A stretch of DNA of 64,000 nucleotides from Sphingobacteriaceae bacterium (GTDB lineage Bacteria; Bacteroidota; Bacteroidia; UBA7662): positions 7,686 to 71,685 of the forward strand of contig PNNG01000016.1 of NCBI GenBank assembly GCA_013824115.1, given 5' to 3'. The translations under genes were made by a program, and so were the position numbers. The stretch's first letter is position 1. Each line of letters starts with the position of its first letter. Of this stretch, positions 1,917 to 64,000 are shown piece by piece. The notes beneath the pieces were generated by a model. The model was not told the origin of the DNA. It was given only the letters and a program-made list of their open reading frames with translations, and made no database searches.

Positions 1917-1918
1917 TA

Positions 1919-2908: not shown

Positions 2909-3814
2909 GTGAGTTCTATGCATTCAACTGAAGTTTCGGCAACAGGCAATTTTGAACTCATGCAAAAAGTTAGGGATTATGCGCAGTTTATGAAGGTACG
3001 CCTGGCCTCGCTGGTAGTATTCAGCTCTGGAGTAGGTTACCTCATAGCCGCTGGTGCTGATTGGGAGTGGGGTCAATTCCTGTTATTGCTTTTGGGTGGC
3101 TTCCTAATTGTAGGTTCTAGCAACGGCATCAACCAAATCATTGAGCGCGAAAGTGACCAGTTGATGAAGCGTACACTGAATCGTCCGGTTGCAACAGGCC
3201 GCATGAGTGTGGCGGAAGGAGTAATCTTGGCATTGGCCACTGGCATTGGCGGAGTGGTAATTATTGGCTTGAGCACCAATACCTTGAGTGCTACCTTGGC
3301 TTTGATGTCGCTGTTGAGCTACGGTTTTGTTTACACGCCACTCAAGAAGATAAGTCCAATTGCGGTTTTTGTGGGTGCATTTCCTGGCGCGTTACCCATA
3401 CTTATAGGTTACGCTGCATACAATGGTCATTTGAATTTAGAGGCAGGTTTATTGTTTTTGGTGCAGTTTATTTGGCAATTCCCGCATTTTTGGGCCATCG
3501 CTTGGCTGCTGCATGACGATTACGATAAAGCAGGTTTTCGATTGTTACCTACAGCCAATGAACCAGACAAGCGTTCGGCTGTACAAATTTTGTTTTACAC
3601 GGTTTGTTTAATTCCAGTGAGTTTGGCGCCTTGGTGGTTTGGATTTGCCGGGCCCGTTGCGTTGGCGGTATGTTTATTCAGCGGCTTGTTGTTTTTATGG
3701 CCCGCCTGGCAACTGTACCGTACGGTAGACAAAGGCTGGGCACGCAAACTCATGTTCGCTAGTTTTGTTTACTTACCAGTAGTTCAACTGGTGTATTTAT
3801 TCGATAAACTTTAA
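2909..3814 (+). CDS. ctaB: protoheme IX farnesyltransferase (heme O synthase, UbiA family)
   Basis: 301-aa UbiA-type prenyltransferase ('GINQIIERESDQLMKRTLNRPVATG'). The GTG at 2909 abuts the ctaA stop; an in-frame ATG at 2918 is an alternative start. Confidence 0.9.
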   Translation: MSSMHSTEVSATGNFELMQKVRDYAQFMKVRLASLVVFSSGVGYLIAAGADWEWGQFLLLLLGGFLIVGSSNGINQIIERESDQLMKRTLNRPVATGRMSVAEGVILALATGIGGVVIIGLSTNTLSATLALMSLLSYGFVYTPLKKISPIAVFVGAFPGALPILIGYAAYNGHLNLEAGLLFLVQFIWQFPHFWAIAWLLHDDYDKAGFRLLPTANEPDKRSAVQILFYTVCLIPVSLAPWWFGFAGPVALAVCLFSGLLFLWPAWQLYRTVDKGWARKLMFASFVYLPVVQLVYLFDKL

Positions 3815-3816
3815 AG

Positions 3817-4404
3817 ATGATGGAAGCAGCAATGCAAGGAAATATGGCGCCGGTAAAGAAGCGTCAGAAGCTACACCCCAAAGAATTTTTGATGTGGGTG
3901 TTTTTGGTAAGTGTATTTATGATTTTTGCCGGCTTCACTTCGGGCTACATTGTACGCAGAGCCGATGGAAATTGGGTAGAATTTGTATTGCCTGTCGGCT
4001 TTTTGTACTCCACTATTTTAGTGGTACTGAGTAGTATCAGCGCACAATGGGCTTTGATTCAAGCACGTAAAGACAATCTCGACCGGGTTAAAGTGGGAGT
4101 GGGTATAACAGCGTTGCTGGGAATTGCCTTTATATTGGCTCAGCTCAATGCTTTTAATCAACTCGTAGAAATAGGGATGTTTTTGGTAGGAAATCCGTCA
4201 GGCTCGTTTGTTTACATCATTACTGGCATACATGCTTTGCATTTGGTGAGCGCAATCATCGTGATGTTCGTTATATTTGCGAACGTATTTCGGTACCGGG
4301 TACACTCGAAAAACTTGCTGGGGATTCGTTTAGGCACGATTTATTGGCACTTTTTAGGGATTCTTTGGATATACCTATATATTTTCTTATTGATAATGAA
4401 TTAA
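3817..4404 (+). CDS. cytochrome c oxidase subunit III family protein (first of two)
   Basis: 195-aa, about 5-TM ORF with a subunit III-like C-terminus ('IYWHFLGILWIYLY'). It lies immediately downstream of ctaB. Confidence 0.75.
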   Translation: MMEAAMQGNMAPVKKRQKLHPKEFLMWVFLVSVFMIFAGFTSGYIVRRADGNWVEFVLPVGFLYSTILVVLSSISAQWALIQARKDNLDRVKVGVGITALLGIAFILAQLNAFNQLVEIGMFLVGNPSGSFVYIITGIHALHLVSAIIVMFVIFANVFRYRVHSKNLLGIRLGTIYWHFLGILWIYLYIFLLIMN

Positions 4405-4422
4405 TTAATACCTGAATAAACC

Positions 4423-5103
4423 ATGGCATCTACTACTGCAATTACCGGCAAAAAGAGCATCTGGGATGGTGGCTCCGAACCTTTCGGCGCGAGCTACGGT
4501 AAACTCATGATGTGGTTTTTCCTTTTGTCTGACGCTTTCACTTTCTCTGCCCTGCTGCTTGCCTATGCAGCCATTCGTTTCAGTGCTGGCAGTTGGCCGG
4601 TTCCGGATGATGTATTTGCTGCCATTCCTTTTGTGCATGGCAATCATTATCCTTTGGTATTTGTTGGTATCATGACCTTTATACTTATCATGAGTTCAGT
4701 TACCATGGTATTGGCTGTAGAAGCTGGCCATCGCGGCGCTAAAAACGAAGTGGTTAAGTGGATGATTTGGACCATTATTGGAGGTATTGCGTTCTTGGGT
4801 TGTCAGGCTTGGGAATGGAGCCATTTACATCACGACGGTGCATGGTGGGGTAACAATCCATTTCTGAATGCTGATGGAACGGCTGGTCATGTGAATTTCA
4901 CGAATTTGTTCTTTACCATCACTGGTTTTCACGGTTTCCACGTTTTCAGCGGTGTTGTGATTAACGTCATAGTTACTCTTATGGCTGCCAATGGTGTTTT
5001 CGATCGCCGAGGCACCTACGAAACCATCGAAAAAGTAGGACTTTACTGGCACTTTGTTGACCTGGTTTGGGTGTTTGTATTTACTTTCTTCTACCTCATC
5101 TAA
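4423..5103 (+). CDS. cytochrome c oxidase subunit III
   Basis: 226-aa ORF with subunit III motifs ('FTITGFHGFHVFSGV', 'LYWHFVDLVWVFVF'). Confidence 0.85.
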   Translation: MASTTAITGKKSIWDGGSEPFGASYGKLMMWFFLLSDAFTFSALLLAYAAIRFSAGSWPVPDDVFAAIPFVHGNHYPLVFVGIMTFILIMSSVTMVLAVEAGHRGAKNEVVKWMIWTIIGGIAFLGCQAWEWSHLHHDGAWWGNNPFLNADGTAGHVNFTNLFFTITGFHGFHVFSGVVINVIVTLMAANGVFDRRGTYETIEKVGLYWHFVDLVWVFVFTFFYLI

Positions 5104-5118
5104 TAAAATTAAAGATAT

Positions 5119-5433
5119 ATGTCGTCTCACGAGCATACTTCAAGCTTCAATGTGAAAGATATCTGGCGCGTGTTTTTCGTGCTGTTAGCTATCACGGTAG
5201 TAGAGTTTATCATTGCATTGGCTGTGCCCGAGTCTTTCATGGCCAAGGACATCAAGAACTGGTTGTACATCATTCTGACTATCATGAAGGCCTTCTACAT
5301 TGTGGCGTACTTCATGCACCTCAAATTCGAAAAAATCAATCTGATCTATAGCATTTTGTTGCCAACGGTTTTCATTTTGGGCGTCATTGCAGCCTTGATG
5401 TACGAAAGCAACTACTGGCTCGACATTCGCTAA
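5119..5433 (+). CDS. cytochrome c oxidase subunit IV-like small membrane protein
   Basis: 104 aa with three predicted TM helices. Size and position after subunit III match caa3 small subunit IV family proteins. Confidence 0.65.
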   Translation: MSSHEHTSSFNVKDIWRVFFVLLAITVVEFIIALAVPESFMAKDIKNWLYIILTIMKAFYIVAYFMHLKFEKINLIYSILLPTVFILGVIAALMYESNYWLDIR

Positions 5434-5436
5434 GGC

Positions 5437-6075
5437 ATGCTGAAAAAGTTCGGATTGCTTTTTCTGATGCTGGGTGTACCAGCTATTCTGTATCTGGTAT
5501 ACGTGAGCATTGCTGAGAATAATTATCAAAAGCTTCCTGTCTTCGGACCCAAGGAAGCTTTTTTTGTAACGGCCAACCAAAAAGTGGCAGATACCGCCTA
5601 TCATGAATTGAGGGTATTGGAGAAGTCACTCGAACGGGTAACCAATCGGGTCAGGGTAGTGAGTGTTTTTGTTCCTGGAGATGGCAAAAACAACCGGATT
5701 CGTTACCGTCAATTGGCCCGGGTGGAGGACGTTTTTAAAGACAATCCCTTGATTTGGACAATGCATTTTCACAGTGGTGAAGACAGTTTAGCTGTGCTGG
5801 GCTGGTGCAAAGACTCGCCCAAACGCCTGAGCTATTTTGCAGGCAGTGCATTCGTTGATAGTGTAGAAAAGTCACTTTGGATTTATCAGCCCGATTGGAA
5901 AGGCATTTATCCGGATGCACAGTTACACGAATTGACTTTTTTAGTTGATAAAAAACAACGTGTTCGAGGTATGTACAAAACGGTGCTTCGCAAAGAAACC
6001 GACCGTTTGATGGAAGACATCCGTACGTTAATTGTGGAATACGCGAATACAGAACCCAAGCGTCGCCGGCGATAA
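5437..6075 (+). CDS. SCO1/SenC-like thioredoxin-fold protein lacking the CxxxC copper site
   Basis: 212 aa with an N-terminal membrane anchor. The C-terminal part resembles SCO proteins ('FLVDKKQRVRGMY'), but 'VFVPGDGKNN' sits where a canonical SCO has 'FTxCPxxCP'. It occupies the usual SCO slot of Bacteroidota cox operons. Confidence 0.5.
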   Translation: MLKKFGLLFLMLGVPAILYLVYVSIAENNYQKLPVFGPKEAFFVTANQKVADTAYHELRVLEKSLERVTNRVRVVSVFVPGDGKNNRIRYRQLARVEDVFKDNPLIWTMHFHSGEDSLAVLGWCKDSPKRLSYFAGSAFVDSVEKSLWIYQPDWKGIYPDAQLHELTFLVDKKQRVRGMYKTVLRKETDRLMEDIRTLIVEYANTEPKRRRR

Positions 6076-6113
6076 ACAATTTGCCCCTTTTGCGGGTTTA
6101 TTTGGAGATTATC

Positions 6114-6638
6114 ATGAAAGAAAAATTAGCACTAAGAACAATTTATATCGTATCGGCCATTGTGTTCGTTGCAGTAGTTGTCTTGTTCAATTTACCCAAA
6201 CAAGAAAGTATACCTGGCTTTGTTCGGTACCTGCCAACCCTAAATGCGATTATCAACGGTACCTGTAGCGTGCTTTTGTTGGTGAGTTGGGTGATGATTG
6301 CGCGTAAGCAAGTGAAATGGCATAAATACTTGAATATTTCAGCCTTTATGCTGTCGGCACTATTTCTAGTGTCGTACATCATATTTCATGCTTTTGGAGT
6401 TGAGACCCGATATCCGGCCGATAGTCCATACCGCGGCATTTATTTATTCATTCTCATTACCCATATCATTTTGGCTGCCGGGGTTTTGCCTTTGGTGCTG
6501 CTTTCGTTTTACAGAGGGTTAACCGGACAAATTGAAAGTCACAAGCGTATTACCCAATGGGCCATGCCCATTTGGCTGTATGTAACAATAACAGGCGTGG
6601 TAGTTTATCTCATGATTTCACCTTATTACACATTTTGA
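6114..6638 (+). CDS. DUF420 family membrane protein (cox-operon associated)
   Basis: Four-TM ORF with DUF420-like motifs ('LPTLNAIINGTCSVLLL', 'HKYLNISAFMLSALFLVSYIIFH'). I prefer the ATG at 6114 over the upstream TTG at 6081 given in the ORF track. Confidence 0.75.
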   Translation: MKEKLALRTIYIVSAIVFVAVVVLFNLPKQESIPGFVRYLPTLNAIINGTCSVLLLVSWVMIARKQVKWHKYLNISAFMLSALFLVSYIIFHAFGVETRYPADSPYRGIYLFILITHIILAAGVLPLVLLSFYRGLTGQIESHKRITQWAMPIWLYVTITGVVVYLMISPYYTF

Positions 6639-6639
6639 T

Positions 6640-6873
6640 ATGAGGCGCTGGATTGTTGCAGTAAGTTTTTTGGCGTGCATGTCCGGGGCATCATTTTCGG
6701 TAGATGCACAGTGCCCCATGTGTAAAACCTCGTTGGAAGCCAACCGCAAAGACAGTAAAAATGCAGTAGGTAATGGCATTAATAACGGCATTCTCTACTT
6801 GCTTGCCATGCCCTTTATCATGGTAGGCGGAGTGGCCGGATTGTACATCTACCGTAATCGCAAAACGTCGTGA
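6640..6873 (+). CDS. small secreted, C-terminally membrane-anchored CxxC protein (hypothetical)
   Basis: 77 aa with a signal peptide, 'QCPMCK' directly after the predicted cleavage site, and one C-terminal TM helix. It starts 1 nt after the DUF420 stop, and its stop overlaps the next gene's GTG (GTGA). Confidence 0.5.
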   Translation: MRRWIVAVSFLACMSGASFSVDAQCPMCKTSLEANRKDSKNAVGNGINNGILYLLAMPFIMVGGVAGLYIYRNRKTS

Positions 6874-7247
6874 AGCCCGTTTCATGGGCCAAAGCTTTGG
6901 GTGAATGCCGCTGCCCACAATGCCGGCAGGGGAATATGTTTATGCATCCGGCATGGCAATTACACAAGGCTACCCGAATGCACCAAACTTGTCCACATTG
7001 CGGACTCAAATTTGAAGTGGAGCCAGGTTTTTTCTGGGGAGCCATGTATTTCAGTTATGCTTTTGGAGTAGCTATTTCAGTGATTTTTGGCGTCTTGGCC
7101 TATTGGCTCTTCGATGATCCTGAAATTTGGGTCTACATGGTGGTGATTTTTACCCCTCTTTTTCTTTTGTCTCCATTAAGCATGCGTTACAGCCGTGTTT
7201 TGATGCTGTACCTTTTTGGGGAAATTGAGTTCGAAGAAAAGGCCTGA
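6870..7247 (+). CDS. DUF983 family membrane protein
   Basis: 125 aa with two CxxC pairs ('CPQCRQG', 'CPHCGLKFEVEPGFFWGAMYFSY') followed by two TM helices, as in DUF983. Confidence 0.7.
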   Translation: MKPVSWAKALGECRCPQCRQGNMFMHPAWQLHKATRMHQTCPHCGLKFEVEPGFFWGAMYFSYAFGVAISVIFGVLAYWLFDDPEIWVYMVVIFTPLFLLSPLSMRYSRVLMLYLFGEIEFEEKA

Positions 7248-7322
7248 ATGCTTTGTGGATTAAGTGTATAAAGCTTCCTTGGATAAAGGGGCGATTCTAC
7301 CTAAATTCGCGAAACCTTTCAT

Positions 7323-10026
<2,704 letters not shown>

Positions 10027-10056
10027 CAAAAGCCCCCGATTTGGGGGCTTTTTTTA
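10027..10056 (+). terminator. rho-independent terminator (bidirectional-looking) between convergent genes
   Basis: GCCCCC (10032-10037), loop GATTT, GGGGGC (10043-10048), then T7. An A-run upstream makes it usable from both strands. Confidence 0.6.
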
Positions 10057-10066
10057 TTGGGCAAGG

Positions 10067-10426
10067 TTAATCTAGTCGGGCCAAGCGATAGAAAGTGAGT
10101 CCTTTTCTTGATTTGATGGCGGTTTCTTGTTTAACCATCTTCCATCTATCATGAAAAGCGTATTTTTCTTCTGATGTGGCCTTGAGCTTAAGCTGAGCGC
10201 CGCGCATGCTGTAGGTGCCCGATACCTTTACCTTTTGGGTAGGGTGTGAAAAGTCCTGATAGGTGAAGGTTTGGTCGGCATGCAACACCAGCTTGATGTT
10301 TGAAGGATCGGTTGGTGAGACGCCAAAAGTTTTGATTACGTTGGTTTGGGCTTTCGTGGATAGTGCCATTAAGGGCATGGCCACGATACACATCAAGCAG
10401 GTTTTTAAAAAGTTGGGGTGTGTCAT
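10067..10426 (-). CDS. hypothetical secreted protein (last gene of ECF operon)
   Basis: 119 aa with a signal peptide ('MPLMALSTKAQ'). It starts 9 nt downstream of the preceding gene on the same strand. I recognised no motif. Confidence 0.5.
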   Translation of the reverse strand: MTHPNFLKTCLMCIVAMPLMALSTKAQTNVIKTFGVSPTDPSNIKLVLHADQTFTYQDFSHPTQKVKVSGTYSMRGAQLKLKATSEEKYAFHDRWKMVKQETAIKSRKGLTFYRLARLD

Positions 10427-10435
10427 ATATGTTGA

Positions 10436-11581
10436 TTAAGGTTTGTAAGGGAATGCCAGGTTGAAGGCGCCGTTGGTGATTTCCATTTGCTCGCTGCCAT
10501 CGGCACTGAACAAGGTACATTGTACGGTGCCTTTCAGTTGTTTTACCGGTAGGCCTTGCGGGGTGTTTTTGAATTCGGCGATGTCGGTAATGAGGAAACT
10601 GGCATTTGCTTGTTGATCGCCGAAAGCCGAGCTGAACAAGGTGCCATCTGCGCGGCGATACTGAATACGGAGCGTACCGGTTTGGAGAGGGTCGTTGAAT
10701 GCGTTGCTGTTTACACGGAAGTTTACAGTACAAAAAATAGCAGGGTCATGTGTTACTTGTTTAACTACTTCGCTGCTGCACTCGTTGTTGAAGGCTCTCA
10801 TGCGCACCAGATTAACATCCCCTGTGCCCAAAGCACTTACCGGTAAGTTGATTTGAACGCCTGTGTAGGTCGCGCCATTGATTTGCCACTGAACAGTGTA
10901 AGGCGCTTGCAGGCTGATGCCCATGGCATTGAATTGTACCTGGCTGTTGTTGTTGATGAGGCTGTAATGAAAATCAGCTGTACAGGAAGTATTTACTGGC
11001 GCAGCTTGAATGATTTTTTCGAGGCTGTTGTTGCAGCCGTTGGTGAAGAATGATGTGAGGCGAACCCGGTAACTGCCTGCAGGCAGCAACAGTTGGGGAG
11101 CCGCCGCCTGGGTGCTTTGGATGAGCTGCCCACTGCTGTCGCGCACTTCCCATTGGCTGGCAATGAGCTGGTTGCCTAAACCCGGGAATGATTGATTTTG
11201 CAATTGCAAGCGGAACAAATTGGAGCCAAAACTGCGAAAGAAAGGATAGGCTTTCCGCTGAAAAGTAGAGTCGGGCACCATGGGAGCTTGGGTTTCCAAG
11301 GCGGCATGGTCGCGGATAATGAATTCCCAGCTGTTTGGGCAGCCATTACAGTTGTTAGGCTGAAGGGCTGCGGTAGTTTCATATACTTGTCGCTGATCCT
11401 GCGCTACGCTCGTTTGCAGGTAGAAGTTATTGTTTCCGGCTTGCAATTGGATGGGCGTGCCGCCGAGTTCGGCTGTGAAGTAGAATTGTGGATTGCCCCG
11501 AACAGCTCCTTCCTCAAAGTCAATAGCGTGTTGACAAGCTAGCAAGCTGCCTAAGAGCCCAAAGAATATTGCTTTTTTCAT
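10436..11581 (-). CDS. hypothetical lipoprotein
   Basis: 381 aa with a lipobox-like 'GSLLAC' and beta-rich, Asn/Gln-rich composition. Its start overlaps the upstream gene's stop by 4 nt (ATGA). Confidence 0.6.
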   Translation of the reverse strand: MKKAIFFGLLGSLLACQHAIDFEEGAVRGNPQFYFTAELGGTPIQLQAGNNNFYLQTSVAQDQRQVYETTAALQPNNCNGCPNSWEFIIRDHAALETQAPMVPDSTFQRKAYPFFRSFGSNLFRLQLQNQSFPGLGNQLIASQWEVRDSSGQLIQSTQAAAPQLLLPAGSYRVRLTSFFTNGCNNSLEKIIQAAPVNTSCTADFHYSLINNNSQVQFNAMGISLQAPYTVQWQINGATYTGVQINLPVSALGTGDVNLVRMRAFNNECSSEVVKQVTHDPAIFCTVNFRVNSNAFNDPLQTGTLRIQYRRADGTLFSSAFGDQQANASFLITDIAEFKNTPQGLPVKQLKGTVQCTLFSADGSEQMEITNGAFNLAFPYKP

Positions 11582-12771
11582 GGTTGCTGGCGTTGAAAGA
11601 GGTGGTATTGCAGGCTGAACTGCCAGGGAGCGGCAGCGGGCAAAGTGTAATTGCCGCTACTTGCATTCCTGAATTGGTATTGCAAGCCAAGGCGGAAAGC
11701 CGGACTGATATCGTACTGATAGCCCAAGCCGGGTAGGAAGCGCTGCACGCTTGCCTGCGGCCAGGCAGCACGGCCATTTTCGGCTTGGATAACCGGTGTT
11801 GCATCTTGCCTTTCAATTTGTTTGTTCAGGCTATAACGCGAAAACAAGTAATGCTGGTAGCTGAGGGCGCCATATACCCGGTGTTTGCCTCTGGCATATC
11901 CGAGTTGCCATGCATTTTGCAGGGTCCAATAATCACGCAGCTCGAGGGTTTGGGTGGTGCGCTCAAAACCAAAATCATAGGTGGTTAAGGTATTCACGTA
12001 GTTCCAATTACGCAATCCTTGCTGCTGCATGCCCACGAGCCATTGTCCGTAAAGCCCATTTTCGAATTGAACAGCAGCGAAGGTACCGGCTTGCCAGTTC
12101 AAGCTTCCGGCACCTCGTTCTCCACTTACATTCCAGGTGGGTTGACTGGCGGTATACAAGCCCAGTGCCCATACAGGTGCCGATTTGGCCTGTGGTCGCT
12201 CAAAAAGGAAGGGTTCAACAGGTCTTTCGGTTGGTGATGGTTTTTCAAATGAGGTGCTCTCCAATTGGACTTTGCGTGCCATTAGATAGGAAACAAGGCC
12301 CGGCCTTTCTACCACTTCAGCTGCTGAACTTACCATGTCAGCAGCCTGGTTGTTGTGGTCAGCAGGCGTGGTGTCTCGATTTTTACCTGGCAGTGGTAAG
12401 GCAGGGGGCAGTGCAGTTGACTCATTCGTTGACGTTCCATGGCCTTTTGCAGTTGTCCAGTCAGTGCGTGTATGCGCGGTACTTTCATCCACTTCCGCCA
12501 ACAGCTCGGTTGTTCGGTTAGGCTTTTCGGCAAGCGCATGTGCCAGCGCTTGCACATTGCTTTGGGGTTGTGTTTCTGCCTGCGAGGGCATGAGCATCCA
12601 CCAAGCGGTTCCACCTACCAGGGCAGGCAACAGCCACAGCCACCACAGGCCTTTGCGCTTGCGTTCTTTTTGAAGCAAGGCTTGCGCCTGCTGCCAATCG
12701 GCCTCCCGGTAAGGGAAGTCGGCGCCATCGAGCAGTTCGCGTATCTTTTTATCGAAGGATTCAGCTTCCAT
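11578..12771 (-). CDS. putative anti-sigma-like membrane protein with beta-barrel-like C-terminal domain
   Basis: 397 aa. It has a short cytoplasmic N-terminus ('FDKKIRELLDGADFPYREADW'), one TM helix ('LWWLWLLPALVGGTAWWMLM'), a Pro/Thr/Ala-rich linker, and about 200 aa of alternating aromatic beta-strand pattern ending '...FSLQYHLF'. It overlaps the ECF sigma stop by 11 nt. Confidence 0.6.
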   Translation of the reverse strand: MEAESFDKKIRELLDGADFPYREADWQQAQALLQKERKRKGLWWLWLLPALVGGTAWWMLMPSQAETQPQSNVQALAHALAEKPNRTTELLAEVDESTAHTRTDWTTAKGHGTSTNESTALPPALPLPGKNRDTTPADHNNQAADMVSSAAEVVERPGLVSYLMARKVQLESTSFEKPSPTERPVEPFLFERPQAKSAPVWALGLYTASQPTWNVSGERGAGSLNWQAGTFAAVQFENGLYGQWLVGMQQQGLRNWNYVNTLTTYDFGFERTTQTLELRDYWTLQNAWQLGYARGKHRVYGALSYQHYLFSRYSLNKQIERQDATPVIQAENGRAAWPQASVQRFLPGLGYQYDISPAFRLGLQYQFRNASSGNYTLPAAAPWQFSLQYHLFQRQQP

Positions 12772-56512: not shown

Positions 56513-56669
56513 GTTTTTTTTTGGACAATTTTAGCGCAGAAACAAAGGGCAAAAAATGCCGTGGATTGGGTATTTTCACTACCAACTTGCCAGCACGATT
56601 GGCCATGAAGCTGCAAATGGAATGGCAATTTGTGCTGCTCTCAACCTTTCTGCGTTATTTTGCGTTTAA

Positions 56670-57785
56670 ATGCTGATGAAACCACAACTGGATTTAGTGC
56701 CTAAAGCTGCGTGGAAAGCCCATGGTCCTTTGCTTATTGCCGGTCCCTGCAGTGCCGAAACGCCTGCCCAATTCCGTGCCACCCTCACGCCTTTGGCCGA
56801 GCTAAAGCCCGATTTTGTGCGTGCTGGCATTTGGAAGCCGCGTACCCGTCCGAACAGTTTCGAAGGAGTAGGGGTAGATGCGCTCGCTTGGAGCGTGGAA
56901 ATCAGTCGCGAATTGGGTTTACCTTTGGCCGTTGAAGTGGCTAGCGGCAAGCACGTGGAAGCTGCATTGAAAGCCGGCGTGAGCCTGTTGTGGGTGGGTG
57001 CCCGCACCACGGTAAATCCGTTTATGGTGCAAGACATTGCCGATGCAGTGCAGGGCGTAAACAATCCGATGCTCGTGAAAAATCCGGTGAACCCCGATTT
57101 GGAGCTGTGGATTGGTGCCATCGAACGCCTCAACAAGGCGGGCATCCGCAAGTTGGGGGCTATTCACCGCGGTTTTTCGGGTTACGAAAAGAGCATTTTC
57201 CGCAACCACCCCAATTGGGAAATTCCCATTGAACTCAAGCGCCTTTTGCCCGATATGCTGCTCATTGCCGATCCTTCGCACATCAGCGGCAACCGTTTGC
57301 TGGTGCCCGAAACAGCGCAAGTAGCGCTCGATTTGGATTTCGACGGCTTGATGATCGAAACCCATTGCGATCCTGAAAATGCCTGGAGCGACGCCCGCCA
57401 GCAAATTACCCCCGCCAGCTTGGGAGAATTGCTGCAAAACCTTATTTACCGTCGACCACAAACCGACGATGTGGTGTTCAATGCCCGTTTGGAGGCCCTG
57501 CGCCGCGACATCGACGGGGTAGATGCCGCATTGTTGGACTTGTTGGCCAAGCGTTTGGCCCTGACTTCGGAGGTGGGTGCCGTGAAAAAAGACAACGACA
57601 TTACCATTTTGCAACCCGAGCGCTGGGCCGAAATTGTGGAAAGTCGACTTCAAAAATCGGGCAGTCTGGGCATGGACCCCACCTTCGTAACCCGCCTGTT
57701 GCAGCTGCTTCACCAGGAAAGCATCAATACCCAAGTGAAAATGTTCCAAGAGGCACGCCTAAACGCCTCCAAAACCGCTGAATGA
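56670..57785 (+). CDS. bifunctional 3-deoxy-7-phosphoheptulonate (DAHP) synthase / chorismate mutase type II
   Basis: 371 aa. The N-terminal type I-beta DAHPS/KDO8PS-like barrel has 'LIAGPCSAE' and 'WVGARTT'. The C-terminal chorismate mutase helix bundle has 'LRRDIDGVDAALLDLLAKRLALTSEVGAVK'. Confidence 0.9.
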   Translation: MLMKPQLDLVPKAAWKAHGPLLIAGPCSAETPAQFRATLTPLAELKPDFVRAGIWKPRTRPNSFEGVGVDALAWSVEISRELGLPLAVEVASGKHVEAALKAGVSLLWVGARTTVNPFMVQDIADAVQGVNNPMLVKNPVNPDLELWIGAIERLNKAGIRKLGAIHRGFSGYEKSIFRNHPNWEIPIELKRLLPDMLLIADPSHISGNRLLVPETAQVALDLDFDGLMIETHCDPENAWSDARQQITPASLGELLQNLIYRRPQTDDVVFNARLEALRRDIDGVDAALLDLLAKRLALTSEVGAVKKDNDITILQPERWAEIVESRLQKSGSLGMDPTFVTRLLQLLHQESINTQVKMFQEARLNASKTAE

Positions 57786-58801
57786 GTACACCGCTGTATT
57801 TCAGCGATGATTTGGAGGTCGATATGGAGGCCTTTGTAGCCGACCGCTATTCGGCCCGCTTCGTTTTGGCTGATACCAACACACGCCTGCATGCCGAACC
57901 TTTGGCCAAAGCACTCAACGCCAAATTGCTGGTTGTGCCTGCTGGTGAAAACCACAAAAATCTCCAACAAGCCGAAAAAATTTGGCAGCAACTGCTCAAT
58001 GCGGGGGCCGACCGCCGGGCGGTGCTTCTCAACCTGGGCGGCGGCATGATTACCGATTTGGGTGGATTTGTGGCCGCTAGTTATAAACGCGGTATTTCCT
58101 GCATCCATGTGCCTTCCAGTTTATTGGCCATGGTAGATGCTGCGCACGGCAGCAAAACAGGCATCAATATGGGCGGTGTAAAAAACGCCATCGGCCATTT
58201 TTATCCAGCCGAAGCCATTTTTATTCACGCAGCCCTGCTCGATACCTTGCCTTTGCGCGAATTGCAAAGCGGCAAGGCCGAAATGTTCAAACATGGCTTG
58301 CTGGGCGATGCGGAATTGTGGCAGCAAATGACAGCTCTTCCGGCAGCAGCTAGGCCCGGTCGTGCTTTGCTCGAACGTGCCATTGCCCTCAAAACCACAA
58401 TTGCAGCCGCTGACCCCACCGAAAAAGGCCTACGCAAACTCCTTAACCTGGGCCATACTTTTGGCCATGCTTTCGAAAGTTATTTCATGTACAGCAGCAC
58501 GCCTTGGTTGCACGGTGAGGCCATTTTTGCAGGGATGCTGCTAGAAGCCCGGTTATCGAATCGGCTGGGTTTGCTGAGCGAAGCCGATTTAGATGAAATA
58601 CAACGGGTGCTTCAAAACTGGCAGCCCGCTGGAAAATGGCCTCCGTTGGCGCTCATTTTACCTTGGTTACTTAACGATAAAAAGAACCACAGCAGTCAGG
58701 TGCAATTTGTACTTCCCGTCGCCATCGGCAGCGCGGTGTACGACCAAGCCGTTTCGGTTGCCGATTTGGAAAAGTGGTACCCCCAACTCCTTGAAGGATG
58801 A
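57782..58801 (+). CDS. aroB: 3-dehydroquinate synthase
   Basis: 339 aa with 'LGGGMITDLGGFVAASYKRGISCIHVPSSLLAMVDAAHGSKTGIN' and 'LNLGHTFGHAFE'. Its start overlaps the previous stop as ATGA. Confidence 0.92.
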   Translation: MSTPLYFSDDLEVDMEAFVADRYSARFVLADTNTRLHAEPLAKALNAKLLVVPAGENHKNLQQAEKIWQQLLNAGADRRAVLLNLGGGMITDLGGFVAASYKRGISCIHVPSSLLAMVDAAHGSKTGINMGGVKNAIGHFYPAEAIFIHAALLDTLPLRELQSGKAEMFKHGLLGDAELWQQMTALPAAARPGRALLERAIALKTTIAAADPTEKGLRKLLNLGHTFGHAFESYFMYSSTPWLHGEAIFAGMLLEARLSNRLGLLSEADLDEIQRVLQNWQPAGKWPPLALILPWLLNDKKNHSSQVQFVLPVAIGSAVYDQAVSVADLEKWYPQLLEG

Positions 58802-59087
58802 AGATTTCAAAGCCATCGACCCGTTCGTTGGTCAAAGTTGTGAATTTGCCTGCAACTAAAATCGTTGGTTTTATTCTCTGCGGCCTCCGGCCAAGTTGCG
58901 TAGCAACAATGGCCAAAAGGCTCCGTTCACTCCAGGCCCGCGTGCAGCCGTTCTTGATGTCAATGAATGCCAATTCAAGTGCCAATAGTAGTGGGCTTGC
59001 ACAGTGGGAATTCGTGACAAGTACTCCCTCCGCGCCTCTGCGCTGTGCCCCGGCTATCCGGGGGTTCAATCCTGAAACCCGCTAGTC

Positions 59088-60338
59088 ATGATGCAAGTAG
59101 CCGTCTCCACCAAGCTCCAGCCCGCCACCCGCCCACTCTCCGGCCCCATCGCCCTGCCCGGCTCCAAGAGCGCCAGCAACCGCCTCTTGATCCTCCGCGC
59201 ACTGGCCAACGCCAATACCCAACTCCTCGGCCTCTCCACCGCCGCCGATACCGCCTATATGCAAGCCGCCTTGCAACAAATAACAGCCCAGCCGGGTGGA
59301 CGCATCTTCGCCGGAGCCGCCGGAACAGTGATGCGCTTTTTGCTGCCCGTTTTGGCCCTGCGCCCTGGCATTTGGGAGCTGTACGGCAGCGATCGCGCCC
59401 ACGAACGGCCCATCGGCCCGCTGGTAGATGCCTTACGCAGCTTGGGAGCGAAAATTGATTACCTCGACAAGGAAGGATTTCCACCCTTGCGCATTGAAGG
59501 CGGAACGTTAAATGGGGGAGACGTACAGCTTCCAGCACACCAAAGTTCACAGTTCGCCACGGCGCTGTTGTTGGTAGGAGCCAGGCTACCCGGTGGACTC
59601 CAACTGCAACTTACCGGCGAGCTGGTATCGCGCCCCTATTTGCAGCAAACCATCGAGCTGTTGGCTGCGTGTGGTGTAAAGGTGCAGCAAGCAGGAAATA
59701 CCTACACGATCGCGGAGCAATACATCAACATGCCTGCGGTGGTGCAGGTGGAGCCCGATTGGTCGTCGGCCGCTTATTGGTTGGCCTGGGTGGCTGCTGT
59801 GCCAGGCAGTGAGCTGCTGCTCGAAAATTTGCCGCTTTACTCGCACCAAGCCGATAGCCGAGCGGTGGAATGGATGGGGCCACTGGGCGTGAAGGTGACC
59901 GGACAACCGAACGGATTGCTGCTCCGTCACCAAACGCCTGAAATTACAGATGGGCGAAACTACGACGGTCGCGATTGTCCCGATCTCGTACCCGCCCAAG
60001 CAGTTTTGTGCGCCTTGCAGCAACAACCCGCCTTGTTTACCGGTTTGGCTACCTTGCGCCTCAAAGAAAGCGACCGCATCGAAGCCCTGGCCGTGAATTT
60101 ACGTGCTGCCGGAGCGGTGGTGAGCAGCGGTCCCGATTGGTTGCACATCGAAAAAGGCATTCCAGAAGGAGCGGGAGAGGTACACGTCCAATGCTTCCAC
60201 GACCACCGCATGGCCCTGGCATTTAGTGTGCTCGCAGCGGCCCAAAAAACCGTTATTTTTGACCAGCCCGAGGTCGTAGCCAAATCGTATCCCAACTATT
60301 GGGAACAGCTGGCCACCCAAGGCATCAATTTTCGATAA
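59088..60338 (+). CDS. aroA: 3-phosphoshikimate 1-carboxyvinyltransferase (EPSP synthase)
   Basis: 416 aa with 'LPGSKSASNRLLILRALA', 'GAAGTVMRFL', 'LRLKESDRI' and 'DHRMALAFSVLA'. Confidence 0.93.
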   Translation: MMQVAVSTKLQPATRPLSGPIALPGSKSASNRLLILRALANANTQLLGLSTAADTAYMQAALQQITAQPGGRIFAGAAGTVMRFLLPVLALRPGIWELYGSDRAHERPIGPLVDALRSLGAKIDYLDKEGFPPLRIEGGTLNGGDVQLPAHQSSQFATALLLVGARLPGGLQLQLTGELVSRPYLQQTIELLAACGVKVQQAGNTYTIAEQYINMPAVVQVEPDWSSAAYWLAWVAAVPGSELLLENLPLYSHQADSRAVEWMGPLGVKVTGQPNGLLLRHQTPEITDGRNYDGRDCPDLVPAQAVLCALQQQPALFTGLATLRLKESDRIEALAVNLRAAGAVVSSGPDWLHIEKGIPEGAGEVHVQCFHDHRMALAFSVLAAAQKTVIFDQPEVVAKSYPNYWEQLATQGINFR

Positions 60339-61418
60339 ATGGCAGGCAACAGTTTCGGACAGTTTTTCCGCATCACCACCTTTGGCGAATCGCACGGACC
60401 GGCCATTGGGGTGGTGGTAGATGGGTGTCCGGCCGGACTCGATTTCGACCTTGCCTTTATTCAGCAGCAAATGGACCGCCGCCGTCCGGGACAAAGCGCC
60501 CTCACCACCGACCGCAACGAAGCCGACCGGGTGGAGGTGCTGTCGGGCGTATTCGACGGCAAAACCACCGGAACGCCCATTGCCATGCTGTTGCGCAATG
60601 CCGACCAGCGCTCTAAAGATTACGATGCTTTGAAGGAAGTGTACCGCCCTTCGCATGCCGATTATACCTACGAGGCCCGTTATGGCCTGCGCGACCACCG
60701 CGGAGGTGGACGCAGCTCGGCGCGCGAAACAGCCGCGCGCGTGGCATCCGGTGCCCTGGCCCAATTGCTTCTCCGAACGGTTGGCGTACAGGTGCAGGCC
60801 TATGTGAGCGCGGTGGGGCCTGTTGAACTCCAAAAGTCGGCTGCTGAGTTGGATTTAAGCCTCGTTGACAGCCATGCCGTGCGTTGTCCCGACCCTGAAA
60901 CCGCCGCTGCCATGGAAGCCCTCATCACCCAGCTCAAAGCCGAGGGCGATTCGGTAGGCGGGGTGATCAGTTGTGTGGCCAGTGGTGTGCCGGCAGGTTG
61001 GGGCGAACCCGTTTTCGATAAGCTGGAGGCCGATTTGGCCAAGGCCATGCTCAGCATCAATGCCGTAAAAGGATTTGAAGTAGGCAGTGGTTTTGCCGCC
61101 AGCAAAGGTCGTGGTTCCGCCTTCAACGATGCGTTTGTGCTGGAAGAAGGCAAAGTCCGCACCCGCACCAACCATTCAGGCGGCATCCAGGGTGGCATCA
61201 GCAATGGCGAAGACATCACCTTCCGCGTGGGTTTCAAACCTGTGGCCACCATTGCCCAAAAGCAACAAACGCTCACCCGCAGCGGCGAAGCCACCGAGCT
61301 CCAAGCCCAAGGCCGCCACGACCCCTGCGTGGTGCCCCGCGCCGTACCCATCGTAGAAGCCATGGCCGCTTTGGTGCTGGCCGATCATATGTTGCGGGAA
61401 AGGGTGGCGCGGGTGTAG
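60339..61418 (+). CDS. aroC: chorismate synthase
   Basis: 359 aa with '[19 protein letters not shown]', '[15 protein letters not shown]' and '[13 protein letters not shown]'. It starts immediately after the aroA stop. Confidence 0.95.
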
Positions 61419-61425
61419 GGGTGAG

Positions 61426-61818
61426 TTAGTATTGTTGCCTCCCCGGAATCACCCCTCTCACCCCGCCTATTGGATTTTCTACATCACCATCATAACGCGG
61501 AATCAAATGCAAATGCACATGCATGACCGTTTGGCCGGCTATTTCGCCCACATTCACGCCGATGTTGTAGCCTTGGGGTTGAAAGTCAGTATCGAGTAAG
61601 CGCTTTACTTCATCGAGAAGTTGCCAACAGGCCGCTTTTTCATCGGGCGACAGCTCAAAGTAATTGGTTACATGACGTCTGGGGATGATGAGTGCATGGC
61701 CGGCATTCACCGGGAATTTGTCAAATATGGTGTAAGCAAAGTCGTTTTCAGCCAGAATGCGGCGGTCAGTCATGGGTGTGCAAAAGGGGCATTGCGCTGA
61801 ATAATTCAAATGCTCCAT
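61426..61818 (-). CDS. HIT (histidine triad) family nucleotide hydrolase/transferase
   Basis: 130 aa with an N-terminal 'CPFC', 'GHALIIPRRH' and the histidine triad 'HVHLHLIPR'. Its start overlaps the upstream HNH gene's stop by 13 nt. Confidence 0.85.
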   Translation of the reverse strand: MEHLNYSAQCPFCTPMTDRRILAENDFAYTIFDKFPVNAGHALIIPRRHVTNYFELSPDEKAACWQLLDEVKRLLDTDFQPQGYNIGVNVGEIAGQTVMHVHLHLIPRYDGDVENPIGGVRGVIPGRQQY

Positions 61819-62951
61819 GCTTCAAATCCCCTGCTTTCGATGAGGTAGTTGCAGCTCTTTTGAAGCTGTGCCAAACTTGCATGTTGCCAATTGTCAAAAT
61901 CACGTTTGCCTAACAAAGCCACTTGCATTTCGCGCTGAAACCGGTCATTTTGATTTTTCTGGATGATTTGCCAATAATTTAGAATCAGGTCTTTTTGCCT
62001 TTCAATCAGTTCTGGAGTAGGAATACGGTCGCGCTTTTTGCCATTTACAGTAGAGTGAGCAGGCAGAAGGTTCCACAAATCGTTGTTTTTCCAGACTGAG
62101 AAAGGGATAACATGGTCGATGTCGTAGGAATGGAGCTTGTCGCCTGTCCATACACAATACACCTGGCCTTGCTGGTTCAGCACCTCACGGTAAATCTTTT
62201 TTGATTCTTCAATATTGCGTGCCGTTATGGGGCTCACCAGAACTTCATTGATGACGTTTTCAATGGACAGATTTTGCCCCGAGGCATTTACCGAAAACTG
62301 TGCCCATTTGAATAAGATGGAATTTTGGCCATTGATGAAACTGCCGAAAACCTTGAAGGCTTCGTAATATTCTACCGGAATACTGAAAGTACCAGCATGC
62401 TGAATGAGGTATTCTACATTTACGTAAATGGGTAAATGCATAGGAGCATTCTCGTATTCGAATATGGAGTAGTAAGCATTGGTGATGGAACGTCCAATGT
62501 ATTTCATGGGCATTTGGGTGATGGTATCACGCAGTTTTTTTATCAACTGAAAGACATCTTCCCTTAGCTCATGCGGTATGCCTTTGTTTTTGAGGTCGTT
62601 GTAAAAGGCCGAAAAGCCGCCCCTCAGTTCGTAGGTATCAATCACTTTTTTAAACTGCGTACTGAATGCCAATTTGGCTTCGCCATTGATTTGCGGAATG
62701 GTTGTTTCCGACCGCAATATGGGGTAGTAATACATCAACCACTTTTCGATGAGCAAGCCAGTGGGTATGTATACCCTACCAAGTATTTCGTCAATAAAGG
62801 GTGAATTATCGTCGATGATATCTATTACCCCGCGCAACAAAGCAAATTTATAGGTCGTCGACTTGCTGTCGCGCTCAATGATTTTGCTGATGTTGGTAAA
62901 GACTTCGCGGTTCATTTGTTCAAAAATAGGGTGTCTGGCGAGAAAAACCAC
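61806..62951 (-). CDS. HNH / His-Me finger nuclease domain protein with large uncharacterised N-terminal domain
   Basis: 381 aa from GTG 62951; ATG 62915 is an alternative start. The C-terminal motif is 'YDIDHVIPFSVWKNNDLWNLLPAHSTVNGKKRDRIP'. I recognised no motif in the roughly 280-aa N-terminal region. Hand counts of sample lines give about 38-47% G+C. Confidence 0.7.
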   Translation of the reverse strand: MVFLARHPIFEQMNREVFTNISKIIERDSKSTTYKFALLRGVIDIIDDNSPFIDEILGRVYIPTGLLIEKWLMYYYPILRSETTIPQINGEAKLAFSTQFKKVIDTYELRGGFSAFYNDLKNKGIPHELREDVFQLIKKLRDTITQMPMKYIGRSITNAYYSIFEYENAPMHLPIYVNVEYLIQHAGTFSIPVEYYEAFKVFGSFINGQNSILFKWAQFSVNASGQNLSIENVINEVLVSPITARNIEESKKIYREVLNQQGQVYCVWTGDKLHSYDIDHVIPFSVWKNNDLWNLLPAHSTVNGKKRDRIPTPELIERQKDLILNYWQIIQKNQNDRFQREMQVALLGKRDFDNWQHASLAQLQKSCNYLIESRGFEAWSI

Positions 62952-62973
62952 CCTTTGTTTTGGCAGCTGAAAA

Positions 62974-63010
62974 TTTTGAACTTTGAACTTTGAACTTTGA
63001 ACTTTGAACT
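62974..63010. repeat. five tandem TTTGAAC (= GTTCAAA) heptamers
   Basis: The sequence is TTTTGAACTTTGAACTTTGAACTTTGAACTTTGAACT, with TTTG at 62975, 62982, 62989, 62996 and 63003. It lies in the divergent intergenic region between the HNH gene and the symporter gene. Confidence 0.85.
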
Positions 63011-63051
63011 ACCCCGTAGGGGGATTACCTTCGCCTTTCTATCGTGTGGCC

Positions 63052-64000
63052 ATGAAAAAGAAAAAACTCGCACTGCATTGGCAAATCATCATCGGTTTGG
63101 TGGCCGGGGTGCTGTTCGGATTGCTATCGAGCAGCCTAGGCTGGAACAGTTGGGTGGTCGATTGGGTGAAGCCCATAGGTACCATCTTTGTGAATTTGTT
63201 GAAGCTGATTGCCATGCCTTTGGTGCTGGCATCGCTGGTGGTGGGCATTGCGAGCTTGAAAGACGTGAGCAAATTATCGCGACTGGGTACCAAAACCATC
63301 AGCCTTTACCTCGCAACCACGGTCATCGCCATCACCATTGGTTTGGTAACGGTGAACCTGCTGCAGCCAGGCAGTTATTTGTCGGCCCAAAAACGCGACG
63401 AGCTCAAAGCCCGGTATGCTACCGAAGCGGCCTCTAAATCGGAAAAGGCCGAATTGGTTACCCAAACCGGACCTTTGCAACCTTTGGTTGATGTGGTGCC
63501 CGACAACCTCTTCAAAGCCATGGGCGACAATATCAATATGCTGCAGGTGGTGTTTTTCGCGGTCTTTTTTGGCATTGCGCTCATCCTCATTCCCGATGAA
63601 CAAACCGCCGGGGTGCGTTCCTTTTTTGAAGGTGCCAACCACATCATCCTCAAAATGGTTGATTTGATCATGATTGGTGCGCCTTATGGTGTTTTTGCCT
63701 TGTTGGCGGCGCTCATTGCCGAATTTGCTGGGAGCAATCCGGCCGATGCATTGGAATTGCTCAAAGCCTTAAGTGTGTACAGCCTCACCGTCATCATTGG
63801 TTTGGCGACCATGATTTTTATCATTTACCCGCTGCTGTTTCGCATTTTCACCAAGTTCAATTACGCCCGTTTTTTCAAGGGTATTGGTCCGGCCCAATTG
63901 CTGGCCTTTTCCACCAGCTCTAGCTCGGCTACCCTGCCGGTAACCATGGAGCGGGTAGAAGACCACCTGGGGGTATCGGAAGAGGTATCGAGTTTTGTGC
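63052..64000 (+). CDS. dicarboxylate/amino acid:cation symporter (DAACS/GltP family), 5' partial (runs off the window)
   Basis: I translated this by hand from ATG 63052: 'MKKKKLALHWQIIIGLVAGVLFG...IFVNLLKLIAMPLVLASLVVGIASL...MLQVVFFAVFFGIAL...GAPYGVFALLAALI...AFSTSSSSATLPVTME'. The open frame continues to 64000 with no stop. The ORF track lacks it, presumably because it has no stop in the window. Confidence 0.9.
   Translation, partial: MKKKKLALHWQIIIGLVAGVLFGLLSSSLGWNSWVVDWVKPIGTIFVNLLKLIAMPLVLASLVVGIASLKDVSKLSRLGTKTISLYLATTVIAITIGLVTVNLLQPGSYLSAQKRDELKARYATEAASKSEKAELVTQTGPLQPLVDVVPDNLFKAMGDNINMLQVVFFAVFFGIALILIPDEQTAGVRSFFEGANHIILKMVDLIMIGAPYGVFALLAALIAEFAGSNPADALELLKALSVYSLTVIIGLATMIFIIYPLLFRIFTKFNYARFFKGIGPAQLLAFSTSSSSATLPVTMERVEDHLGVSEEVSSFV

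Follow-up and report, generated by a model that had tools for sequence, protein, structure and literature searches.

Background

Among the nucleases linked to phosphorothioate (PT) modification of DNA, SspE and DndI are the PT-sensing nickases of SspABCD-SspE and DndBCDE-DndI and join an N-terminal DUF262, a ParB-like NTPase with a DGQQR motif, to a C-terminal DUF1524; DndI is toxic without PT, whereas SspE, being inert in the absence of PT, would not be kept by selection (PMC11662687). Type IV enzymes of the SBD-HNH kind, in which a sulfur-binding domain (SBD) accompanies an HNH nuclease, are often encoded in PT (Dnd) loci (PMC10853773, PMC7461809). Among the HIT-family hydrolases, HINT1 hydrolyses phosphoramidates and desulfurates (deoxy)nucleoside monophosphorothioates ((d)NMPS) to (d)NMP and H2S (PMC8775712). 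Here, we analyzed a gene pair encoding a predicted HNH nuclease and a HIT-family protein in a 64,000-nt stretch of DNA (the window) from a Sphingobacteriaceae bacterium (assembly GCA_013824115.1, contig PNNG01000016.1, positions 7,686 to 71,685), and the nuclease of the pair was given the working name HNHx. The source genome comprises 2.84 Mb in 40 contigs, is ~85% complete and has a G+C content of 49.1%.

We favor the view, at a probability of about 0.55, that this pair is an autonomous, reduced copy of a previously undescribed mobile nuclease-plus-HIT cassette of the defense type. The view builds on what was established for the locus and its relatives, namely gene structure, domains, pairing, loss of a methyltransferase, selection, mobility, and the defense and Ssp neighborhoods. 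Judged from these genomic features, the cassette appears to behave like an accessory defense or restriction-type element, as it is rare, transferred, located in variable slots, accompanied by defense genes and, in some relatives, encoded directly after sspB-sspC. A modification-dependent (type IV-like) or otherwise gated nuclease would fit best.

Gene structure and domains of the pair

The pair consists of two overlapping minus-strand open reading frames (ORFs), and on this point the coordinates agree with a sequence-only reading made earlier of the same DNA, including the 13-nt overlap. The features of the pair are as follows (window positions).

61806..62915, minus strand: HNHx gene, encoding a 369-aa nuclease (ORF; homologue starts; stop codon at 61806-61808)
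62211..62915, minus strand: N-terminal domain of HNHx without a known family, residues 1-235 (negative HMM and PDB searches; AlphaFold2 model)
62019..62159, minus strand: predicted HNH (His-Me finger) core of the Cas9-type HNH_4 family (PF13395 above cut-off; PDB match; invariant columns)
61809..62018, minus strand: predicted helical C-terminal extension past the HNH core, residues 300-369 (model helices and conserved columns)
61806..61818, minus strand: 13-nt overlap of the HNHx stop and the HIT start, ATGGAGCATTTGA (ORF coordinates; locus L003; alignment)
61426..61818, minus strand: HIT-family hydrolase gene, 130 aa, stand-alone, without a methyltransferase domain (PF01230; alignment with fusions)
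61507..61521, minus strand: histidine triad H100-x-H102-x-H104 (HVHLH), invariant in 63 cassette HIT domains
61419..62960, no strand: pair-bearing segment, present in the window and in sister genome G002 and absent from the aroC-symporter junction of sister genome G004 (tblastn maps and junction alignments)

The ORF finder placed the nuclease at 61806..62951 on the minus strand, with 381 aa from an alternative upstream start, GTG at 62951. Among the 120 closest homologues listed, almost every one has a length of 369 aa and starts at residue 13 of that reading (ATG 62915). The true HNHx is therefore most likely the 369-aa protein starting at ATG 62915, and the 381-aa reading is 12 codons too long; the ORF described earlier stands, but its length and start do not.

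The C-terminal His-Me finger proposed from sequence is borne out by Pfam, in which residues 273-311 (381-aa numbering) match HNH_4 (PF13395) at E = 3e-9, with 37.1 bits against a cut-off of 22. It had been likened to McrA or GmrSD modules; instead, the Cas9-type HNH_4 domain is the closest in Pfam, and the nuclease core lies nearest the Cas9 HNH domain in the NCBIfam, PADLOC and PDB sequence searches, with Cas9 HNH as the best match of HNHx in the PDB sequence profile search (5e-8). Residues D267, H268, N277, N278, N282 and N291 (369-aa numbering) are invariant in 29 relatives; we take D267-H268 to be the catalytic Asp-His and the Asn residues to hold the metal or the structure. By profile and conserved catalytic residues, HNHx is a His-Me finger nuclease of the HNH_4, Cas9-type family with predicted activity. 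The core is followed by an extension of ~70 aa, which forms helices at 301-362 in the AlphaFold2 model and has conserved columns at I311, Y314, W315, F326, E329, L334-G336, R362-G363 and W367.

The second protein matches PF01230 at E = 1.4e-23, with 83.8 bits against a cut-off of 21.5. Together with the intact triad, in which H102 would presumably be the nucleotidyl-accepting histidine, this profile match places the predicted product in the HIT superfamily. The protein misses the equivalog cut-offs for HinT and purine nucleoside phosphoramidase (58.8 bits vs 130 for NF045834; 25 vs 206 for NF007965). It also resembles the profiles of diadenosine tetraphosphate (Ap4A) phosphorylase, ATP adenylyltransferase and DcpS, all below their cut-offs, and matches the PADLOC ThsC model at 4.5e-13, a generic HIT-domain match with no Ths partners present. 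HIT enzymes include aprataxin, and in aprataxin-like DNA 5'-AMP hydrolases a DNA-binding C-terminal zinc finger accompanies the HIT domain; at 130 aa, the window protein is a HIT domain alone, with no C-terminal zinc finger or other repair-family match in Pfam or NCBIfam. A C-terminal NPxGGVRGVIP tail is conserved in the cassette HITs.

Compared with G002, the dN/dS ratios are 0.064 for HNHx and 0.098 for HIT (aroC, 0.168), which indicates strong purifying selection on each of them in this lineage. The low ratios and the invariant catalytic residues argue that the pair, which lacks a methyltransferase found in most relatives, is a working variant and not debris. The dS between the window pair and its G002 counterpart (L091) is 1.38, approximately twice that of the adjacent syntenic aroC (0.61); weaker codon constraint, faster evolution or allele replacement are possible causes.

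The N-terminal domain of HNHx

The N-terminal region had been described as matching no nameable family, and all searches concur. Residues 1-260 gave no match in the Pfam, NCBIfam, PADLOC and PHROGs hidden Markov model (HMM) libraries, and the PDB sequence profile search of HNHx returned only Cas9 HNH and left the N-terminal domain unmatched. AlphaFold2 models of both the full-length protein and residues 1-235 are confident (predicted local distance difference test score 83, predicted template-modeling (TM) score 0.85). In the model, a winged-helix-like start (helix 22-35, beta hairpin 42-51, helix 52-68) would be followed by a helical bundle, an alpha/beta part, the HNH core and the helical C-terminal extension. 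Foldseek searches of the PDB with the full-length and N-terminal domain models gave no match at E<=0.001. The hits to ScoMcrA and its sulfur-binding domain (5zmo/5zmm) were not counted as evidence, since they ranked 48-49 at E = 7.5 with TM scores of 0.19-0.30; because these hits are not significant, a modification-reading role is conjecture. Within the libraries searched, the modeled domain thus has no known family or fold; it would be a new fold and not a member of a housekeeping family.

Across 29 sequences with 58-85% identity, 53 positions of the N-terminal domain are invariant, in contrast to the fast-evolving specificity domains of restriction enzymes. From this strong conservation, we infer that the domain reads an invariant ligand, which could be a chemical mark, a DNA structure or a partner protein.

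The full cassette and the loss of its methyltransferase

To place the pair among its relatives, the best 80 of 212 confirmed relatives in the genome collection were examined as loci. Bacteroidota account for most of the hosts and Ignavibacteriota for some, and one cyanobacterial and one gammaproteobacterial metagenome-assembled genome (MAG) are included. By tblastn, a HIT gene lies directly downstream of HNHx in 62 of these loci; counting two partial HITs at contig ends, a downstream HIT is present in 65 of the 77 complete loci, as a fusion in 50 and as HIT only in 15. The HNH-HIT pairing is thus conserved in other genomes, as the sequence-only reading had supposed. Its description of a two-gene unit stands as far as the pair is concerned, which is real and conserved; the window pair is a reduced variant, as the usual second gene encodes a methyltransferase-HIT fusion. 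In the 50 fusions (~288 aa), the first ~155 residues are a class-I S-adenosylmethionine (SAM) methyltransferase and the last ~130 are HIT. The methyltransferase matches only generic class-I families (Methyltransf_23/25/11), with VLDFGCGFG as motif I. The fusions use the same 13-nt overlap with HNHx, as in L003 (HNH at 6013-7122, fusion from 7110).

In the alignment, the window HIT keeps the first few codons of the fusion and resumes just before the CPFC motif, with ~155 residues lost in frame; by this comparison, the window pair has evidently lost its methyltransferase through an in-frame deletion. On the maximum-likelihood tree, the HIT-only state must have arisen no fewer than 3 and as many as 9 times. 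Copies from three species of the genus (window, G002 and G004) form a HIT-only clade with 100/100 support, and HIT-only copies also occur in a second genus of the same family.

An exhaustive search yielded 1,289 family clusters at 50% identity, of which 239 have E<=1e-30. Approximately 35 of the top 150 cluster representatives are longer proteins of 550-780 aa that contain the whole 369-aa module from near residue 210. Among ten long distant relatives scanned, 7 have a class-I methyltransferase fused N-terminally to HNHx, with secondary matches to TPMT (1e-7) and TehB, and 4 have a C-terminal Peptidase_S24. Methyltransferase-HNHx fusions stand alone on proteobacterial megaplasmids, one of them beside dGTPase and NERD-nuclease genes. 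Since one type of methyltransferase is joined to HIT in some phyla and to the nuclease in others, all three components probably act together, and the methyltransferase link is, judged from the sequences, ancient. Cultured carriers of the family include Chryseobacterium sp. R2A-55, Mariniflexile soesokkakense KCTC 32427, Algoriphagus antarcticus DSM 15986 and Lacihabitans lacunae CECT 7956.

A separate observation concerns the L096 operon (159-12695), which encodes a 216-aa PAPS_reduct protein, four unknown proteins, a 770-aa fusion (methyltransferase, HNHx-type N-terminal domain, HNH and Peptidase_S24) and a 1,461-aa FtsK/HerA ATPase. This operon looks like a HerA/FtsK "capture"-type conflict system that employs the HNHx nuclease module.

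Mobility, composition and flanking sequences

The cassette is rare and horizontally mobile. Within the genus, 3 of 5 genomes carry HNHx; so do 9 of 41 relatives and, in an even draw of 401 genomes from the class, 6. Its gene tree is at odds with taxonomy, and near-identical copies occur in different orders and phyla. Moreover, the aroC-symporter junction is a variable slot among the sister genomes. In G004, aroC and the symporter gene are ~130 nt apart, leaving an empty site, and the pair sits on another contig; in G002, the aroC site is occupied as in the window, with an ORF6N/PDC-S05 gene in addition to the pair; in G003, the slot carries unrelated cargo, namely a YhcG/DUF1016 nuclease gene and a duplicate of the aroC 3' end. 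This duplication suggests an insertion that rebuilt the end of aroC. The integration-signature scan found no flanking direct repeats, integrase or tRNA at the segment that bears the pair. Horizontal acquisition, as proposed earlier, is thus supported by the empty site, the patchy distribution and the conflict between gene tree and taxonomy, and not by base composition.

Two further observations bear on these comparisons. The G003 slot (L092, 2221-6302) contains two secreted proteins with type IX secretion system (T9SS) tails, the aroC 3' duplication (aa 287-359) and the YhcG/DUF1016 gene, which encodes a PDDEXK nuclease. HNHx is near-identical in a Pseudanabaena MAG (L036) and in Flavobacterium MAGs (L031/L033), with branch lengths of 0.0015-0.023, which may reflect binning contamination or a very recent transfer between phyla.

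The G+C content is 42.9% for HNHx, 48.9% for HIT and 44.5% for the pair, whereas the genome averages 49.1%, with an sd of 3.7% among 1.5-kb windows. The atypically low G+C reported earlier holds for HNHx in direction but is modest for the pair (z = -1.25), with 8.7% of the 1.5-kb genome windows equally low or lower, and the apparent local contrast was inflated by the aro genes, which are unusually G+C-rich (55-64%). Low G+C was accordingly rejected as a strong sign of foreign origin. The aro genes at 56600-61400 (DAHP synthase/chorismate mutase-like, aroB, aroA and aroC) are themselves stronger local G+C outliers than the pair.

Both boundaries of the pair given earlier were confirmed: 7 nt separate the HIT stop from the aroC stop (61418), and five TTTGAAC heptamers at 62972-63010 lie on the other side. 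These heptamers are phased, within a 136-nt divergent intergenic region between HNHx and the symporter gene, and are missing from the equivalent region of G002, G003 and G004. The start of the symporter (DctA-like) gene is most likely ATG 63052 (MKKKKLALHW...), conserved in four genomes; TTG 63004, chosen by the ORF finder, is probably not the start (63004-63060). At the opposite end, an imperfect 19-nt inverted repeat (61406-61467, 74% complementary) covers the aroC stop and the convergent HIT 3' end, and may be a shared terminator hairpin around the 7-nt gap. Promoter and terminator scans around the pair were at chance level.

Defense genes and Ssp genes near the cassette

Across loci, only the two cassette genes are conserved, and the flanks vary. 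As the earlier reading had led us to look for, the relatives lie among defense genes. Matches to defense models in the immediate neighborhood include PbeA, SspC, prokaryotic Argonaute (pAgo), DrmC, a type IV restriction endonuclease, AbiD, AbiO and MADS components, together with SspB and several PDC candidate systems (PADLOC).

The Ssp association is the most specific of these. SspB (6e-105) or its remnants occur within 6 kb in 13 of the 80 loci, co-directional and just upstream, usually with SspC (E=0). This is far above chance, because SspB is found in only 10 of the 401 genomes of the class (binomial P = 1e-7, uncorrected for relatedness), and the 13 loci are spread over several clades of the tree. 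The gene order is sspB-sspC-HNHx-MTaseHIT (MTase, methyltransferase), and in L015, SspC overlaps the HNHx start. Some Ssp-linked loci additionally have, divergently downstream, SspA (SspA/DndA match) and a GHKL-type ATPase. A divergent sspA with an HATPase_c_3 gene was seen in the islands L015, L017, L018, L046 and L059 (and L003, L004, L016 and L027) of Bacteroidota and Ignavibacteriota; L004 comes from Chryseobacterium sp. R2A-55, a cultured carrier of the sspB-sspC-HNHx-MTaseHIT order.

No PAPS-reductase (SspD) gene occurs in the sspB-sspC-cassette islands, and 4 of 6 such genomes, which are mostly incomplete MAGs, have none anywhere. SspC is mostly truncated in these islands, and SspB stubs of 73-90 aa stand just before an intact cassette in L020, L025 and L057; the cassette thus seems to outlive the surrounding Ssp genes. 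In L008 (2981-3403), a deletion has fused the N-terminal part of SspB with the C-terminal part of PDC-M11B, a 129-aa protein, and this chimera and the three stubs look like snapshots of Ssp decay. A small ORF upstream of HNHx in L003, L004, L016 and L027 was considered as an SspB fragment and rejected, as it encodes the distinct 129-aa protein (PDC-M11B), which clustered with SspB solely via the L008 chimera.

By tblastn, the genome of the window has no SspB, SspC, PbeA or methyltransferase partner and no DUF4007, with no search aimed at Dnd genes; the SspB/DUF4007 search was validated by its 10 positives among the 401 genomes. Since this genome lacks Ssp genes and keeps both cassette genes under purifying selection, the module probably works without host phosphorothioation.

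Proposed mechanism and alternative explanations

In the favored reading, the full cassette would comprise HNHx, with a sensor or DNA-binding domain of ~235 aa and a Cas9-type HNH, followed by the class-I SAM methyltransferase-HIT fusion. In this bacterial family, the in-frame deletion would have removed the methyltransferase and left HNHx and HIT translationally coupled. The N-terminal domain would recognize an invariant feature of foreign DNA, such as a backbone or base modification or a structure, and not a variable sequence, and the HNH domain would nick or cleave at the recognized feature. HIT would hydrolyze a nucleotide-linked product or cofactor, for which thiophosphorylated or adenylylated ends and mononucleotides are candidates.

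If so, the family would be of broader interest. Bacterial immunity relies centrally on nuclease effectors whose sensor domains can be swapped, and HNHx forms a family of at least 1,289 clusters at 50% identity, with a sensor fold that appears new. No published defense system couples a nuclease to a HIT hydrolase. The link to Ssp operons without SspD/SspE bears on the reading and turnover of PT marks and on HIT enzymes in prokaryotic conflict. As a natural minimal variant without the methyltransferase, the window copy helps to define the essential parts.

Several points weigh against this reading. A defense role, DNA cleavage and the HIT substrates named above are predictions. The N-terminal domain has no significant structural match, the ScoMcrA sulfur-binding domain appearing only at E = 7.5. 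The pair in the window lies between housekeeping genes, outside any defense island, and the enrichment of defense genes is qualitative, coming from a neighbor survey without a matched random-gene control. In the sample of 401 genomes, the 6 cassette carriers and the 10 SspB carriers share no genome. HNHx is intact without any HIT in 13 loci, so HIT is not essential for carrying it. Finally, the plasmid copies are only distant methyltransferase-fused relatives (24-30% identity), and the phage collection searched contained no cassette copy.

More specific explanations were weighed against the same evidence. The cassette could read or process PT-modified DNA: the N-terminal domain would read the sulfur mark, HNHx would be a PT-dependent (type IV-like) or PT-sensing nuclease, HIT would desulfurate 5'-thiophosphate ends or dNMPS released from cut PT-DNA, and a TehB/TPMT-like methyltransferase would alkylate the sulfur or thiol product. 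In the genome studied here, the module would then attack PT-modified incoming DNA. The sspB-sspC-HNHx-MTaseHIT operons, with the overlap in L015, point in this direction, as do the Ssp genes truncated beside intact cassettes, which are expected if a PT-dependent nuclease counterselects PT writing. The distant fused relative in an operon with PAPS_reduct and FtsK/HerA ATPase genes is also in line with a PT link; so are the TPMT and TehB matches of the fused methyltransferases, although generic class-I methyltransferases cross-match many families. HINT1 offers a precedent in its desulfuration of dNMPS (PMC8775712), Dnd loci commonly contain genes for HNH nucleases that bind PT (PMC10853773), and the high conservation of the N-terminal domain would suit an invariant chemical ligand over variable sequences. 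However, Pfam, PADLOC, PDB and Foldseek searches found no significant similarity to an SBD, DUF262 or another PT-reading domain, 67 of the 80 loci have no Ssp gene within 6 kb, and a PT-dependent nuclease beside PT writers would be self-toxic unless regulated. On this balance, a PT reader or processor is an attractive and plausible idea but rather unlikely. It is likewise doubtful that HNHx and (methyltransferase-)HIT constitute an undescribed PT-linked conflict family in which a new fold reads PT or another invariant backbone feature, HNH cuts, and HIT desulfurates or de-nucleotidylates. If this were true, the HIT chemistry would be new to defense, with a TehB/TPMT-like methyltransferase sometimes assisting, and the methyltransferase-less orphan in the window would act by itself, as a type IV-like enzyme, on invaders whose DNA is PT-modified.

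We consider it quite unlikely that the pair is a nucleotide-regulated abortive-infection or toxin pair, with HNHx as a latent toxin nuclease controlled by HIT with or without the methyltransferase, where HIT would make or destroy a small nucleotide signal (Ap4A-like, or capped dinucleotides) or remove a nucleotidyl adduct. The tight translational coupling kept in both architectures would suit such control, as would the resemblance of HIT to the Ap4A phosphorylase, ATP adenylyltransferase and DcpS profiles and the AbiD, AbiO and pAgo genes among the neighbors. However, the 13 loci with HNHx alone show that HIT is not an obligatory antitoxin, and the pair has no linked gene for a cyclase or another enzyme that generates a signal; a HIT model does exist in PADLOC as a Thoeris accessory (ThsC), but the match to it is generic. 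A role in a DNA-modification pathway, in which SspD/SspE chemistry is taken over by HNHx and by HIT, which has a nucleotidyl-transfer fold, whether or not the methyltransferase is present, would make the window copy a leftover of that pathway. Purifying selection on the cassette in genomes without Ssp genes argues against this, and PAPS_reduct is paired with the HNHx module in other contexts. The cassette takes the SspD/SspE position after SspC, and the SspB/SspC/SspA islands lack a nearby PAPS-reductase, but those genomes are mostly incomplete MAGs and the truncated SspC suggests decay over a working variant pathway; we regard this role as very unlikely. Highly improbable, in our view, is a housekeeping pair for repair or end processing (aprataxin-like removal of 5'-AMP plus a repair nuclease) or a selfish, free-standing homing endonuclease accompanied by a passenger gene. 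The pair adjoins aro genes here, and HNH nucleases include homing enzymes, but a pair found in ~1.5% of class genomes, patchy within the genus and absent from an empty site in G004, hardly behaves as housekeeping. Moreover, repair-family matches are missing from Pfam and NCBIfam, flanks that differ at nearly every locus imply no homing site, and the phages searched carry no copy.

Comparison with known systems

As the sequence-only reading had surmised, no named system matches the pair. PADLOC-DB v2.0.0 gave no full-length model match, HNHx hitting only the HNH region of the Cas9 and PDC-M01B models, and the literature search found no named HNH+HIT or Ssp-linked HIT system; papers on the Dnd reappraisal, BREX and DndI describe none.

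The HNH domain of Cas9 has in common with HNHx the D-H...N...N catalytic pattern and a nuclease core of only ~50-100 aa. In contrast, HNHx has no RuvC domain, REC lobe, guide RNA or CRISPR context. For the partner, the Hint/HinT branch (together with PADLOC ThsC) resembles the cassette HIT in the HxHxHxx triad, the CPFC motif and a length of ~130 aa, whereas the cassette HIT differs in scoring below the equivalog cut-offs, in its NPxGGVRGVIP tail and in its genetic coupling to a nuclease. Type IIG and fused restriction-modification (R-M) enzymes, similar to the distant HNHx relatives, combine a methyltransferase, a recognition region and a nuclease in one polypeptide. However, on inspection the cassette methyltransferase has neither the (D/N/S)PP(Y/F) motif nor the C5 motifs PCQ/ENV. 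HNHx persists without a methyltransferase in 28 loci, and since it is retained without a protective methyltransferase, it is probably not a classical R-M enzyme.

ScoMcrA and SprMcrA (SBD (winged helix-turn-helix)-(SRA)-HNH) are similar to HNHx in placing an N-terminal DNA-reading region before HNH, and the model of HNHx suggests a winged-helix-like start. HNHx differs in lacking a significant sequence or fold match to them and an SRA domain, in its N-terminal domain of ~235 aa with further subdomains, and in its obligate-looking HIT/methyltransferase partner. Similarly, SspE and DndI are single polypeptides with a sensor and a His-Me finger nuclease, encoded straight after the PT-writing genes, and in 13 relatives the cassette occupies the equivalent position after sspB-sspC. 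However, HNHx matches no DUF262, DUF1524, SspE or DndI model in Pfam or PADLOC and has no NTPase motif; SspE and DndI have no HIT or methyltransferase partner, and HNHx is kept in genomes without SspB, SspC or PbeA. In this respect, it is unlike DndI, which is toxic without PT, and unlike SspE, which is inert without PT. By profile searches, membership in the SspE/DndI family fails on the defining domains, and no significant sequence or fold match links HNHx to the SBD-HNH type IV family. Collectively, SspE/DndI and the SBD-HNH type IV enzymes would, by analogy of architecture and position, be the closest functional analogs of HNHx.

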